This document shows positions 257 to 4,680 of a stretch of DNA of 15,393 nt, in pieces (the first letter of the stretch is position 1; the number at the start of each line of letters is the position of its first letter). The position numbers and the translations under genes were made by a program. Below the pieces are notes generated by a model. It saw only the letters and a program-made list of their open reading frames with translations. It searched no databases and was not told the DNA's origin. Source of the DNA: an archaeon (GTDB lineage: Archaea; Iainarchaeota; Iainarchaeia; Iainarchaeales; 1-14-0-10-31-34); the NCBI GenBank assembly GCA_043819075.1, contig JBDRFE010000030.1, forward strand, positions 1 to 15,393, written 5' to 3'.

Positions 257-1567
257 TTAAGCCCTCTGCATTTGCTTGTATGCAGCCAAATCCAGCAAAC
301 CATGCCCTGAAAAATTAAAGGCAATAATTTTTTGTTGTTTTTCTTTTTTTGCCTTTAACGCACAGTCAATTGCTGCATTTATTGCATGAGCTGTTTCTGG
401 TGCAGGAATTATTCCTTCACTGTTGGCAAAAAGTCTTGCCGCTTCAAAAGTTTCTTTTTGGTTGTATGCAACTGCTTTCATAAAACCAAGCTTTTTCAGC
501 AGTGAAAGAGAAGGAGAATCCCCGTGATATCTTAGGCCTCCTGCATGAATTGGCTCTGGAATAAAGTCATAGCCCACAGTATACATTTTAATTAATGGAG
601 TCATTTTTCCTGTGTCGCCAAAATCATACCTGTATTCTCCTTTGGTTAGAGTTGGAACTGCTTTTGGTTCAACTGCAATCACTTCAAAGTCTTCTTTTCC
701 TTTTAGTTTGTCTTTCATAAAAGGATAAACCATTCCTGAAAAATTGCTTCCTCCTCCAACACAGCCAATTAATACATCAGGTTTTTTGTCAATTGATTCA
801 AACTGTTTGATTGTTTCCAAACCAATTATTGTCTGATGCATTAAAACATGGTTTAAGACAGAGCCAATAGAATAAAATGTTTTTTCGTTTGTTGCTGCTT
901 TTTCTATTGCCTCGCTTATTGCAATGCCTAAAGAACCATTAAAGTTCTTTTTTTCTTTCAGCAATTGTTTTCCAATATTAGTGTTTTCTGAAGGAGAAGC
1001 AAAAACTTTTGCCCCAAACAAATTCATTAAAATTTCCCTGTAAGGCTTCTGCAAAAAAGAACTTCTCACCATAAAGACTTCTGCTTTTAGTTCATTAAAC
1101 ATTGCTGCCAAAGAAACAGCTGAACCCCATTGCCCTGCACCGGTTTCAGTGGAAACATTTTCAAACCCCTGTTTTTTTCCATAATATGCTTGAGCTAAAG
1201 CAGTGTTTGGTTTATGCGAACCAACAGGGCTTAAGTCTTCTCTTTTATAATAGATTTCTATCCCTTTTGGAAGGGAAAGTTTTTTTTCCAGTCTTAAAGC
1301 CCTGTATAAAGGCCTTGGCCTGCCCAAAAAAATGTATTGCTCTCTTAATTCTTCTGGAATCCTGATAAAAGATTCTGAACTGAATTCCTGTTTAATGCAT
1401 TCTTTTGGAAACAAAACTTCAAAGTCTTGTGGCTTTACAGGCTGCATTGTGCCTGGATTCAAAGGAAAAGGAAGTTCTTCAGGCAAATCCGGAAGAATGT
1501 TGTAGTAATGTTTTGGCAAATCTTCAACAGGCAATTGGATGACGCCAAAGACTCCTCCCTTCCTCAA
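257..1567 (-). CDS. trpB: Tryptophan synthase beta chain, TrpB2 type (PLP enzyme). The true N-terminus probably comes from ATG 1601 via a +1 frameshift at 1550-1544.
   Basis: Motifs GSHKPNTA (PLP Lys), [41 protein letters not shown] and SGHGLLDL, plus the TrpB2-type N-terminal extension (YYNILPDLP). The in-frame TTG at 1567 has no ribosome-binding site. Confidence 0.95.
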
Positions 1568-1982
1568 AGTTTTTTGTTTTAATTTCTTTTATTTTGTTCA
1601 TTGTATTACCTCCTATTTTATAGTTTATCCTGAATAATTCAAGAACATGTTTTGTTGTTTTGCAGGGAAAAAGGTTTTCAATTAAAGCCCTTGAAATCAC
1701 ATCTGATTTTGTTGCACTGAACCCTTTTCTTCTGTTCAATAACTTTATTTCATCAGAAAAATAGTCAACCAAAAAACAGGGAATTTTTTTTATTCCAAGA
1801 AGCCTGAAAGCTTTTACCCTGTGATGGCCGTCAAGGATTGTAAGACTTGTTTTGTCTATTACCACAGGGAAAAAAAGAGTCTTGTTTTTTCTGATTGAAT
1901 TAATGATTTTTAAGAGCCTTGAAGGAATTATTTTTTCATGCGGTTTAAGAAGCGAGATTTCAATTAATTTTATTTTGTTCAA
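1524..1982 (-). CDS. ParB/Srx-fold protein, SerK/SbnI-like putative free-serine kinase
   Basis: LKPHE...RL...PVVID...ILDGHHR...LG..KIP...VDY is the ParB/Srx signature with the PHE glutamate of SerK/SbnI. It overlaps the trpB2 ORF by 44 nt. The TTG start lacks an RBS and directly follows a CTT TGG C site. Confidence 0.75.
1544..1613 (-). promoter_or_regulatory. Internal start (SD GGAGGT 1613-1608, ATG 1601) and prfB-like +1 frameshift cassette GGGAGG-AGT-CTT-TGG-C (1559-1544)
   Basis: Read directly from the minus strand. CTT (1550-1548) is in the frame of ATG 1601; TTT GGC (1549-1544) is in the TrpB2 frame. Confidence 0.75.
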
Positions 1983-2062
1983 GCCAAAGGCTTTCGCTGT
2001 TCTGGCAGCTCCCTTCAGAAAAAAATTTTTTTGAGCTATAATTAACTAAAACAGAATCAGAA

Positions 2063-2095
2063 TTAATTTTGCCAAAGTCGCTCAACTCTTTGCAT
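2063..2095 (-). CDS. Putative leader peptide MQRVERLWQN (10 aa) containing frameshift site 1 (CTT TGG C, 2077-2071)
   Basis: ATG CAA AGA GTT GAG CGA CTT TGG CAA AAT TAA; the ATG lies 23-30 nt downstream of a TATA box, consistent with a leaderless transcript. Confidence 0.65.
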   Translation of the reverse strand: MQRVERLWQN

Positions 2096-2117
2096 AAAAT
2101 AACTGGATAAAAAAAAG

Positions 2118-2125
2118 TATTTAAA
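2118..2125 (-). promoter_or_regulatory. Archaeal TATA box (TTTAAATA) for the leader/kinase/trpB2 transcript
   Basis: Consensus-like TATA at -30..-23 relative to ATG 2095. Confidence 0.55.
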
Positions 2126-3424: not shown

Positions 3425-3499
3425 GCCGGTGTAGCTCAGCCTGGTTAGAGCGTTTGACTCATAATCAAAAGGTCGAGGGTTCAAATCCCTCCACCGGCA
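3425..3499 (+). tRNA. tRNA-Met (CAT), elongator type, no intron, CCA not encoded
   Basis: Acceptor GCCGGTG/CACCGGC, anticodon arm TTTGA-CTCATAA-TCAAA, T arm GAGGG-TTCAAAT-CCCTC. Confidence 0.93.
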
Positions 3500-3663: not shown

Positions 3664-4620
3664 ATGAAGTATGTTGAGAATTCTGAAAAAAGAATAAAAC
3701 TAATTAAAGGAAAACAAAAAGAGTTATTGCATGAAGCAAAGAGTAAAGCAAAATTTAGCTGGTCTGAATTAGCCGCATATCTTAACATTTCTAGCGGATA
3801 TCTTAGAAATGAGTTAAGAAAAGAAGTTTGGACGTTAAGAGAAGATTTATATAGAAAGTTAGTGAAGTTAGCAGGGCAAAACTATGATACTGAAATAGAA
3901 AAAATGCTTGAGAGCAACTGGGGGCAAATAAAAGGTGGCAAAAATAGTTATAGCCAGCCTAAAAAATCTAGGTTATTAATAACAGAACCTAATGAAACTC
4001 TCGCAGAATTAATTGGAATAATGCTTGGAGACGGCAACATGTATGAGATGAAAGAAAAAAGCATTTATCAAACAAGAGTATTTGGGCATAAGGTTGATGA
4101 TTGGGATTACATAACAAAATGGGTGAGTAATATATTTGAAAAGTTGTTTGACATTACTCCTCAAATTAATTACTTAAAAGACGTGCAAGTTGTAATACTA
4201 TTCAAACAAAGCAAACACTTAAATTTCACTTTAAAACATTTTGGACTGAAACCAGGAAACAAGGTGACAAACAACGCTTCAATACCTCAATGGGTTTTTG
4301 ATAACAAAAAATATCTTGAAGCTTGTATTAGGGGCCTTATAGACACTGATGGCAGTATATGCCCAAAAACAAAAAGACACAAAACACCTAGTATTTGGTT
4401 CTGCAATGCTTCTCCAAATATAAGAAGAGACTTTAATAAAGCCTTAAAAATTTTAGGATACAGTGTTTCTAAATGGGTGGTGAAGAAAAACAGAAACAGT
4501 CAAGACTGTTCAATAGGAAATGCTAATGCTGTGTGGAGATACTACAAAGAAATAGGATTTAGCAATCCAAAACATAAAAAAAGATTTGAAATGTTCTGGA
4601 AAAAAGCCCCGATGGTCTAG
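3664..4620 (+). CDS. Free-standing two-motif LAGLIDADG (DOD-type) homing endonuclease-like protein with N-terminal HTH-like region
   Basis: LAELIGIMLGDG and IRGLIDTDGS motifs; SWSELAAYLNISSGYL is HTH-like; C-terminal IGFSNPKH. The last 15 nt lie inside tRNA-Glu. Confidence 0.88.
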   Translation: MKYVENSEKRIKLIKGKQKELLHEAKSKAKFSWSELAAYLNISSGYLRNELRKEVWTLREDLYRKLVKLAGQNYDTEIEKMLESNWGQIKGGKNSYSQPKKSRLLITEPNETLAELIGIMLGDGNMYEMKEKSIYQTRVFGHKVDDWDYITKWVSNIFEKLFDITPQINYLKDVQVVILFKQSKHLNFTLKHFGLKPGNKVTNNASIPQWVFDNKKYLEACIRGLIDTDGSICPKTKRHKTPSIWFCNASPNIRRDFNKALKILGYSVSKWVVKKNRNSQDCSIGNANAVWRYYKEIGFSNPKHKKRFEMFWKKAPMV

Positions 4621-4680
4621 TTCGGTTAAGGATTCTGGCCTCTCAAGCCAGCGACGCGGGTTCAAATCCCGCTCGGGGCA
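4606..4680 (+). tRNA. tRNA-Glu (CTC)
   Basis: Acceptor GCCCCGA/TCGGGGC, anticodon arm CTGGC-CTCTCAA-GCCAG, T arm GCGGG-TTCAAAT-CCCGC. Confidence 0.95.

Follow-up and report, generated by a model that had tools for sequence, protein, structure and literature searches.

Candidate tryptophan-gated +1 frameshifting before a serine kinase-like gene and trpB2 in an Iainarchaeales archaeon

How do ribosomes reach two enzyme genes that lie in successive reading frames, neither of them with an in-frame start supported by a ribosome-binding site? The question is raised by a stretch of 15,393 nucleotides (nt) from an Iainarchaeales archaeon (contig JBDRFE010000030.1 of assembly GCA_043819075.1), analyzed as a whole and called here the window. 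A short upstream open reading frame (uORF1), a linker frame, a gene related to free serine kinases (SerK-like) and trpB2 occupy four successive +1 frames, and every junction between them is CTT-TGG-C. What is observed is how the frames are laid out, that this layout is conserved, that several relatives lack ordinary starts and that the junction codon agrees with the pathway. The likely answer, as far as sequence comparison can carry it, is that +1 frameshifting resembling that of bacterial prfB takes place at these Trp codons, would be triggered by scarce charged tRNA-Trp and would thus gate the translation of the kinase-trpB2 pair.

The source genome (G000) is a metagenome-assembled draft of 1.24 Mb in 75 contigs, 90.55% complete and with 2.93% contamination; the host is a tiny archaeon of groundwater. 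The order was surveyed in 196 genomes (G numbers), and individual loci are given L numbers.

Layout of the locus

All features of the locus are on the minus strand. In the order of transcription, they are the following:

2127-2118, minus: BRE/TATA-like (B recognition element/TATA) element CCTTTAAATA, 22 nt upstream of ATG 2095, containing the TATA-like TTTAAATA at 2125-2118
2095-2063, minus: uORF1, MQRVERLWQN*, 10 codons with Trp as codon 8; stop TAA 2065-2063 two codons on
2077-2071, minus: shift site 1, CTT-TGG-C, within uORF1
2073-1987, minus: linker frame, +1 of uORF1, stop-free for 29 codons from GGC 2073 to CTT, containing the invariant GAAGGGAGCTG
1989-1983, minus: shift site 2, CTT-TGG-C, at the end of the linker; unshifted stop TGA 1962-1960
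1985-1524, minus: mini serine-kinase (SerK-like) gene, +1 of the linker, with GGC 1985, TTG 1982 and stop TGA 1526-1524
1614-1608, minus: Shine-Dalgarno (SD) sequence AGGAGGT, 6 nt 5′ of ATG 1601; GGAGG invariant in five of five aligned loci
1601-1524, minus: uORF3, 25 codons, its ATG 1601 in the kinase frame and not in the trpB2 frame, ending just past site 3
1559-1554, minus: SD-like GGGAGG, 3 nt (AGT) before the CTT of site 3, the geometry of the prfB stimulator
1550-1544, minus: shift site 3, CTT-TGG-C, holding the only Trp codon of the SerK-like frame; unshifted stop 1526-1524
1546-257, minus: trpB2, +1 of the kinase frame, read from GGC 1546 after the shift; stop-to-stop 1588-257
267-249, minus: terminator-like hairpin and T run, overlapping the trpB2 stop and closing the unit

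The sequence-only reading of this locus had given the frames, the three CTT-TGG-C sites and the TATA box correctly at every position, and its products of 189, 447 and 611 amino acids (aa) add up from the coordinates. It had also claimed that the enzymes lack in-frame starts supported by a ribosome-binding site, and this holds for the candidate TTG codons, none of which has an SD sequence at working distance. The SerK-like frame counts 152 codons from TTG 1982 and its 3′ end passes through uORF3, while the trpB2 frame holds TTG codons at 1567 and 1534, both without SD, and counts 436 codons from TTG 1567. The position of the TATA-like element, 22 nt before ATG 2095, suggests that the mRNA is probably leaderless and starts at or next to this codon.

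Site 3 reads, in order, GGGAGG, AGT, CTT, TGG and C. In bacterial prfB the stimulator is likewise spaced 3 nt from the slippery codon. An SD-like element at this distance is found at site 3 only; there is none at site 1, and site 2 has GAAGGGAG 18 nt upstream. The 3′ end of the 16S rRNA of the source genome is GGATCACCTCCTT, with a CCTCCTT tail, that is, a CCUCC anti-SD, and a tRNA-Leu(GAG) gene is present.

In the proposed mechanism, ribosomes supplied with plentiful charged tRNA-Trp would decode UGG and stop a few codons on, at 2063, 1960 or 1524. With tRNA-Trp scarce, the A site would stand empty at UGG, peptidyl-tRNA-Leu(GAG) would re-pair from CUU to UUU, and GGC (Gly) would be read in the +1 frame. 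Entry into the kinase frame would take two shifts in series, at sites 1 and 2, and entry into trpB2 a single shift at site 3, by ribosomes coming either from the SD-preceded ATG 1601 or from the kinase frame. As with the stimulator of bacterial prfB, the GGGAGG before site 3 probably drives the ribosome onward. A ribosome at site 1 would have moved just seven codons away from a leaderless 5′ end, and this may be of importance. The occurrence of shifting, its efficiency and its control by Trp-tRNA are all what we infer from the sequences.

Signs of an RNA-based control were also sought. On the minus strand, the stretch from 2095 to 1524 holds no terminator-like site of the kind expected of a trpL-type attenuator. 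The predicted fold of the leader 2095-1940 has -27.3 kcal/mol, no better than shuffled sequence (z 0.44), and no Rfam family matched, the only hit being a sub-threshold L20_leader at 236-351 (E 0.31).

The heptamer CTTTGGC occurs nine times in the window versus 3.66 expected, at least nine being reached in 3 of 200 shuffles, and 206 times in the whole 1.24-Mb genome. Nowhere else in the genome do three copies share one strand within 600 nt, but with a Poisson expectation of 0.25 such clustering is by itself only mildly unusual and hence weak evidence. The evidential weight sits in the frame logic and its conservation, not in the clustering of the heptamer. In-frame CTT-TGG is depleted 3-fold in the genome: among Leu-Trp pairs it is observed 17 times versus 55.7 expected. 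The depletion extends to ATT-, GTT- and TTT-TGG, so that this avoidance is not specific and was dropped as evidence. Transcriptional slippage is also unlikely by reasoning, since the T run is just 3 nt and the GCC-TGG variants described below have no run.

Two scans of the source genome for further cassettes gave only the window locus and a second copy on contig C21, the remaining matches being ordinary gene starts or chance. On contig C41 (~7391, minus) a mini-frame MFFWKQRVC* with AAGGGA, 6 nt, TTT-TGG and a 109-codon Cys-rich +1 frame was noticed, which is probably due to chance. The C21 copy (C21:5211-6973; L006, L008, L034) is a diverged serK-trpB2 pair at a contig end, with a TrpB2 86% identical to that of the window, the same third site and a similar downstream flank. 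It represents a duplication or else a second strain sorted into the same bin.

The frame changes might be thought to come from assembly indels, or from decay through three single-base insertions, and the draft state, fragmentation and contamination of the genome would be in line with such an origin. This is extremely improbable. Run X1 has a contig that covers 1450-2162 without a gap and with 12 substitutions, and contigs of three further studies cover the sites piecewise without any indel, that is, site 1 (X2, X4 and X5), site 2 (X2 and X5) and site 3 (X4). With independent contigs of four studies free of indels, assembly error at the three sites is excluded. In addition, genomes that have diverged show identical frame changes at matching positions, and the enzyme frames are intact.

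The strain of run X1 has CTG in place of TTG 1534, which removes one candidate trpB2 start, and ATA in place of ATC; neither alters the protein in the trpB2 frame, and one changes the peptide of the mini-frame. Strain variants in other runs lie at 1992 and 1517-1538. The variant at 1992 turns the codon before the CTT of site 2 from AGC into TGC (Cys, the same as in relatives). Among the runs listed as containing the locus, none is of RNA.

Conservation of the junctions and starts of the two genes

The kinase was found in seven of the 196 genomes. All three junctions are kept in G001 (74% kinase identity), in G004 (60%) and in the metagenome locus L038 (60%), which together with the window form the four aligned loci; the region of site 3 is aligned in five loci. 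The expectation that CTT-TGG would stand at +1 junctions of relatives with diverging flanks is borne out by these three relatives, apart from the variants of the first codon given below.

In all four aligned loci the TATA element CCTTTAAA(A/T)(T/A) lies 22-23 nt before the ATG of the first mini-gene, and CTTTGG of site 1 is invariant. The first frame of 10 codons, with Leu-Trp at codons 7-8, is also present in G001, G004 and L038. Site 2 is TTT-TGG-N in the three relatives (CTT-TGG-C in the window). Site 3 is CTT-TGG-C, with GTT-TGG-C in L038, and in each relative a mini-frame opened by an SD and an ATG ends soon after it, with trpB2 one base forward. At the SD-like element of site 3, GAAGGGAG is invariant in the five loci. 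The junction cores (CTTTGG or TTTGG, and GAAGGGAG) are invariant while their flanks diverge.

The linker has 29 codons in the window, G001 and L038 and 30 in G004, with a sole indel of 3 nt. The parts predicted to be translated contain three indels, each of a length divisible by three (linker, 3 nt; past site 2, 6 nt; uORF3, 3 nt); before the first ATG, the indels measure 10 and 2 nt. The linker frame of G001 contains no ATG, GTG or TTG at all. The phase of the linker substitutions, read by eye from the four close sequences of alignment A2, gave no clear third-position signal in any frame. Within the linker, at 2060-2030 (minus), TCTGATTCTGTTTTA followed by TTAATTATA is conserved at all codon positions in the four cascade loci; this block may act as an operator, as an internal promoter or as a signal in the RNA.

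In G001, L038 and G006, neither ATG nor GTG nor TTG precedes the conserved core (KPHE) in the kinase frame. In G004 the sole canonical start before the core is a GTG four codons upstream. Among the kinase relatives in metagenomes (378), starts were analyzed in the best 80, and 77 of these have a canonical start at least nine codons before the KPHE/HE motif, typically an ATG 11-14 codons before HE. An independent case is L117 (39% identity, GC content 47%), where an SD-ATG mini-frame MNTGDLVWLR* is followed by a kinase frame that opens right at TTT-GGC, after a TAG.

The arrangement varies beyond the closest relatives. In G006, of another genus, a lone mini-frame (MKRRDLLW...) exceeds 10 codons, has Leu-Trp as codons 7-8 and lies one base behind a kinase frame that lacks a start codon; the trpB2 of G006 has an ordinary SD-ATG start. 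In G004, uORF3 is a separate frame with an ATGA overlap and the kinase stops before the third mini-gene. The 611-aa fusion of the sequence-only reading is therefore possible in the window and not conserved.

TrpB2 is present in 22 of the 196 genomes and 23 loci were examined, of which three were left unclassified: G156, and G176 and G133 with incomplete 5′ ends (match from query residue 78). A TrpB2 search of genome contigs returned three loci. Among the 20 classifiable loci, 14, spread over three families, carry the cassette: a mini-frame opened by SD and ATG overlaps trpB2, the latter in the +1 frame, and the overlap holds just one UGG. The other six (G006, G061, G125, G127, G148 and G178) have an ordinary in-frame SD-ATG start. 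No canonical in-frame start exists in six of the 14 cassettes (G004, G007, G059, G126, G120 and G135).

In G126, G120 and G135 a TAG in the trpB2 frame stands directly before the junction and the frame overlap is therefore just 3-4 codons, UGG among them; in L117 a stop in the kinase frame limits the overlap in the same way. Between the junction and the first in-frame ATG of these three loci, the trpB2 frame encodes a conserved peptide, ...LGKKV(I/V)ML..., which matches the in-frame N-termini of G125, G127 and G148, with a length difference of 6 nt. This conserved peptide before the ATG is the strongest single argument for entry into the frame at the junction.

In the 25 junctions obtained from the protein searches, the A-site codon is UGG and the gene lies in the +1 frame in every case. 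The codon in the P site is CUU in 16, UUU in three, GUU in two and GCC in four. In genus g46 it is GCC that precedes UGG. The slippery CUU followed by U is present at all three sites of the window, and the relatives have CTT, TTT, GTT and, in one genus, GCC.

In the main rival explanation, the same mini-genes would serve as Trp leader peptides without any frameshifting. They would stall ribosomes at UGG, and the enzymes would start weakly or by termination-reinitiation at TTG 1982 and TTG 1567/1534, the stalled or terminating ribosome modulating access to in-frame TTG, GTG or ATG starts. Mini-genes with a single Trp do resemble classical leader peptides. The kinase of L039 starts (MNKIKL) with an ATG at the aligned position of TTG 1982, and ordinary initiation of the kinase is therefore possible in the window. 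In the window, G001 and G004 the stop of uORF3 lies 8 nt past an in-frame TTG, and in eight of the 14 trpB2 cassettes an ATG, GTG or TTG of the trpB2 frame stands a few codons 5′ of the junction.

Nevertheless, this explanation is considered unlikely, because it finds no canonical start to use for the kinase in three loci and for trpB2 in six, as listed above. Where candidate starts exist, they are not conserved in position (TTG, CTG or TTA in one column and TTG or CTG in another) and none has an SD at working distance; for instance, the upstream starts of the eight cassettes fall in differing alignment columns. Stalling alone also leaves unexplained the constant +1 frame, the CUU, UUU, GUU or GCC before UGG and the upkeep of the linker frame, and the leader does not fold better than its shuffles.

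Gating by +1 shifts at UGG is thus preferred, and its core, that is, shifts at three junctions before a Trp-making pair, is supported by the comparative evidence. Several observations weigh against it, the start of L039 and the upstream in-frame starts of the eight cassettes being the first of them. Sites 1 and 2 have no SD-like element at the prfB distance, GCC re-pairs poorly in the +1 frame, and two shifts in series would give a low output. In-frame CTT-TGG also occurs in 16 other ORFs of the crude gene set. Conservation of the linker extends to third codon positions (TCTGATTCTGTTTTA), beyond coding need, and hints at an additional role at the level of the nucleic acid. G148 encodes GGGKFG in frame, and the conserved GG.FG of the trpB2 frame may therefore be old coding sequence and not only a signal. 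Finally, counts over the related genomes of one order are not counts of independent samples.

Junction codons and amino-acid pathways

The cassettes of G006 and G007 have in common the 15-mer AGAAGGGATTTACTT, which occurs at 39 exact places in the order and, with up to one mismatch, in 89 of the 196 genomes; in the source genome it has no match. In the follow-up, 61 loci were read and the first long downstream ORF was scanned against Pfam.

Where the codon next to the 15-mer is TGG (Trp; 18 loci, 14 of them assigned), 13 of the downstream genes are Trp genes, namely TrpE in ten and TrpD, SerK and TrpB2 in one each, and the remaining one encodes a phosphoribosyltransferase domain protein. Where it is CAT or CAC (His; 11 loci, eight assigned), six are related to His (HisG, PRA-PH and four HisRS-like) and the other two are glycosyltransferases, in which the motif lies inside a longer frame. 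Where it is CCN (Pro; seven loci, three assigned), the genes encode one pyrroline-5-carboxylate (P5C) reductase and two ProB-like kinases. Among the loci read, no cassette with a Trp codon stood before a gene of the His or Pro pathway, and none with a His or Pro codon before a Trp gene. Since the genomes are related, these counts overstate independence. Six loci were set aside as chance matches, four (L125, L139, L141 and L140) in or before unrelated genes and two (L127 and L134) with a stop codon next.

In the case of cysteine, L052 and L100 contain a SerK homologue paired with CysO, a cysteine synthase resembling O-phosphoserine sulfhydrylase (PDB 1wkv, E 1.4e-99). In the stretch ~2390-2500, upstream of the SerK match at 2501, the kinase frame is directly preceded by an in-frame TGA and overlapped by a mini-frame, (M)VKSIC(L/I)*, with its junction at ATT-TGC, that is, at a Cys codon. 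These loci are a possible cysteine-sensing version of the Trp switch.

A match between the codon and the pathway is the pattern that a codon-specific sensor would predict, and neither a shift of fixed ratio nor a plain leader peptide would require it. It bears mostly on the idea that the +1 shifts are constitutive, with a fixed low ratio of enzyme to mini-peptide, or merely compensate for old indels, without response to Trp. Frameshifting that sets a ratio is common, according to the part of a review on archaeal recoding available to us (PMC8211752). Nevertheless, we regard a non-regulatory shift as improbable, because UGG, a rare codon, fills the A site of all 25 junctions before Trp-related genes, and because the exchange of this codon for those of His, Pro or Cys along with the pathway is hard to explain without sensing.

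Taken further, and with only slight preference over its contrary, the order may use modular gauges of aminoacyl-tRNA, in which a +1 slip at a chosen Trp, His, Pro or Cys codon would be rewired by a codon swap, with three Trp gauges on the mRNA of the window.

The trpE leaders of family f13 (L148-L151, L156, L173 and L174) have MARRDLLW mini-frames with a +1 frame of just 30-40 codons, which ends in a conserved Trp-rich ...FIKF(F/Y)S(I/L)YAW.W., 130-460 nt before trpE. Here the shift does not reach the gene and must act in another way.

The enzyme pair, known frameshifts and meaning

The product of trpB2 is a TrpB2, with 655.8 bits against NCBIfam NF009057 (cut-off 366) over the full length, 646.1 bits against a second profile (TIGR01415, cut-off 518.85) and E 1.2e-139 against PDB 6hul. 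The SerK-like product matches the free serine kinase of PDB 5x0b with E 9.9e-13 (query residues 6-104 to 5x0b 20-122) and keeps a ParB/Srx-like N-terminal domain with the KPHE and DGHHR motifs. The Glu of KPHE, which we take to be the catalytic base, aligns to a position that differs (E/Q) between PDB 5x0b and 5x0j. The frame is below the cut-off both for NCBIfam SerK NF053625 (71.8 bits versus 380; residues 5-97 on profile positions 17-113 of 244) and for Pfam ParB_N (21.4 bits versus 26.3), and is shorter than the solved enzymes, ~80 residues of the second half being missing. By its sequence, it is related to, and shorter than, the free serine kinases SerK/SbnI.

This mini serine kinase probably makes O-phosphoserine, as suggested by its position beside TrpB2 in numerous loci and beside CysO in L052. 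Phosphoserine can serve as a substrate of TrpB2 enzymes. The adjacency of the two genes in many unrelated contigs supports a functional kinase-TrpB2 pair. With ordinary starts, the kinase adjoins trpB2 in unrelated contigs of L053, L054, L057-L059, L077 and L079-L081, and further such neighbors are found in L084, L087, L106, L110 and L117; in L079 a TrpA-like ORF lies upstream of the pair.

TrpE (Chorismate_bind) and TrpA (Trp_syntA) had no match in the source genome, which is 90.55% complete, and the kinase-TrpB2 pair would therefore be its Trp source. The pair is best read as an indole salvage, in which serine would be converted to phosphoserine and this, with indole, to Trp. The 'Trp synthesis operon' proposed from the sequence alone is thereby narrowed to a Trp-making pair of genes for salvage and not a full Trp pathway.

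Elsewhere in the window, an ORF with a LAGLIDADG_3 domain (3664-4620) is flanked by the genes of tRNA-Met (3425-3499) and tRNA-Glu (4606-4680) and overlaps the first part of the tRNA-Glu gene.

Compared with known systems, the locus resembles trpL leader-peptide attenuation in that a short translated leader with a Trp codon couples charged tRNA-Trp to Trp genes. Classical trp leaders act on transcription; their Trp codons stand in tandem, and their hairpins alternate between terminator and antiterminator. The locus differs in its single UGG per junction, the lack of a significant fold and of an Rfam match, and the fixed +1 relation to the gene. The frameshifts at 'hungry codons' of starved Escherichia coli are errors, unlike the regulated gate proposed here.

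The closest likeness is to bacterial prfB. As far as the available part of a review of the subject goes (PMC5009743), prfB has a slippery CUU_U, or UUU_U in a minority of species; the codon in its A site is followed by a C, GG_GGG or GG_AGG serves as SD-like stimulator, and the yield is set by the slow decoding of the A-site codon. The locus shares with it the short zero-frame ORF, CUU-U, the C after the A-site codon, the product in the +1 frame and, at site 3, the upstream SD-like element. The likeness drawn in the sequence-only reading is therefore sound for CUU-U, at all three sites, and limited by the SD-like element, at the right distance at site 3 only, and by the A site, where the sense codon UGG takes the place of UGA. 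With charged tRNA-Trp sensed and not a release factor, the locus would work like prfB without being a member of the prfB family. It further differs in being archaeal and in having two sites in series, sites 1 and 2 being without a close SD element.

The same partial text describes the yeast Ty1 site CUU_AGG_C, which shifts at ~40% on a scarce tRNA (PMC5009743). Ty1 and ABP140 share with the locus the heptamer CUU_NGG_C and a P-site tRNA-Leu that slips while a sense codon in the A site awaits a scarce tRNA; in Ty1 that tRNA is constitutively rare, so that a ratio is set rather than regulated. Similarly, the regulatory +1 shift of antizyme, as covered in the parts consulted of PMC8211752 and PMC5009743, is both sensor and effector of a metabolic feedback, with the differences that it senses polyamines, uses a UGA stop and is eukaryotic.

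On trans-frame proteins made specifically under starvation, the 2016 review states, in its available part, that 'no examples are known' (PMC5009743). The 2021 review of archaeal recoding, in the portion available, names the -1 shift of fucA1 as the sole demonstrated case and treats +1 events as suggestions only (PMC8211752). In the literature searched, partly in excerpt and with subscription journals outside its scope, no paper was found on a frameshift sensing Trp or another amino acid before biosynthetic genes.

Regulatory frameshifts are known for the release factor (prfB) and for polyamines (antizyme), and one that reads the charging of a single tRNA on behalf of its own pathway has been discussed and never found. 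If the reading as tRNA gauges is true, these cassettes would provide the first natural case of regulatory frameshifting at a 'hungry codon' and also, for cellular archaeal genes, the first programmed +1 frameshift with good support. The cassette, of 15-20 nt, is portable and apparently reprogrammable by one codon, which makes it a potential synthetic sensor of amino acids. For annotation, gene callers will truncate or mis-start such genes, or call them pseudogenes.

For the organism and its order, the locus bears on where phosphoserine-using TrpB2 enzymes obtain their substrate and on the sensing of amino-acid supply in archaea, especially in the genome-reduced DPANN. If the two serial gauges before the kinase work as proposed, they would give this tiny archaeon a steeper-than-linear response to the lack of tryptophan.

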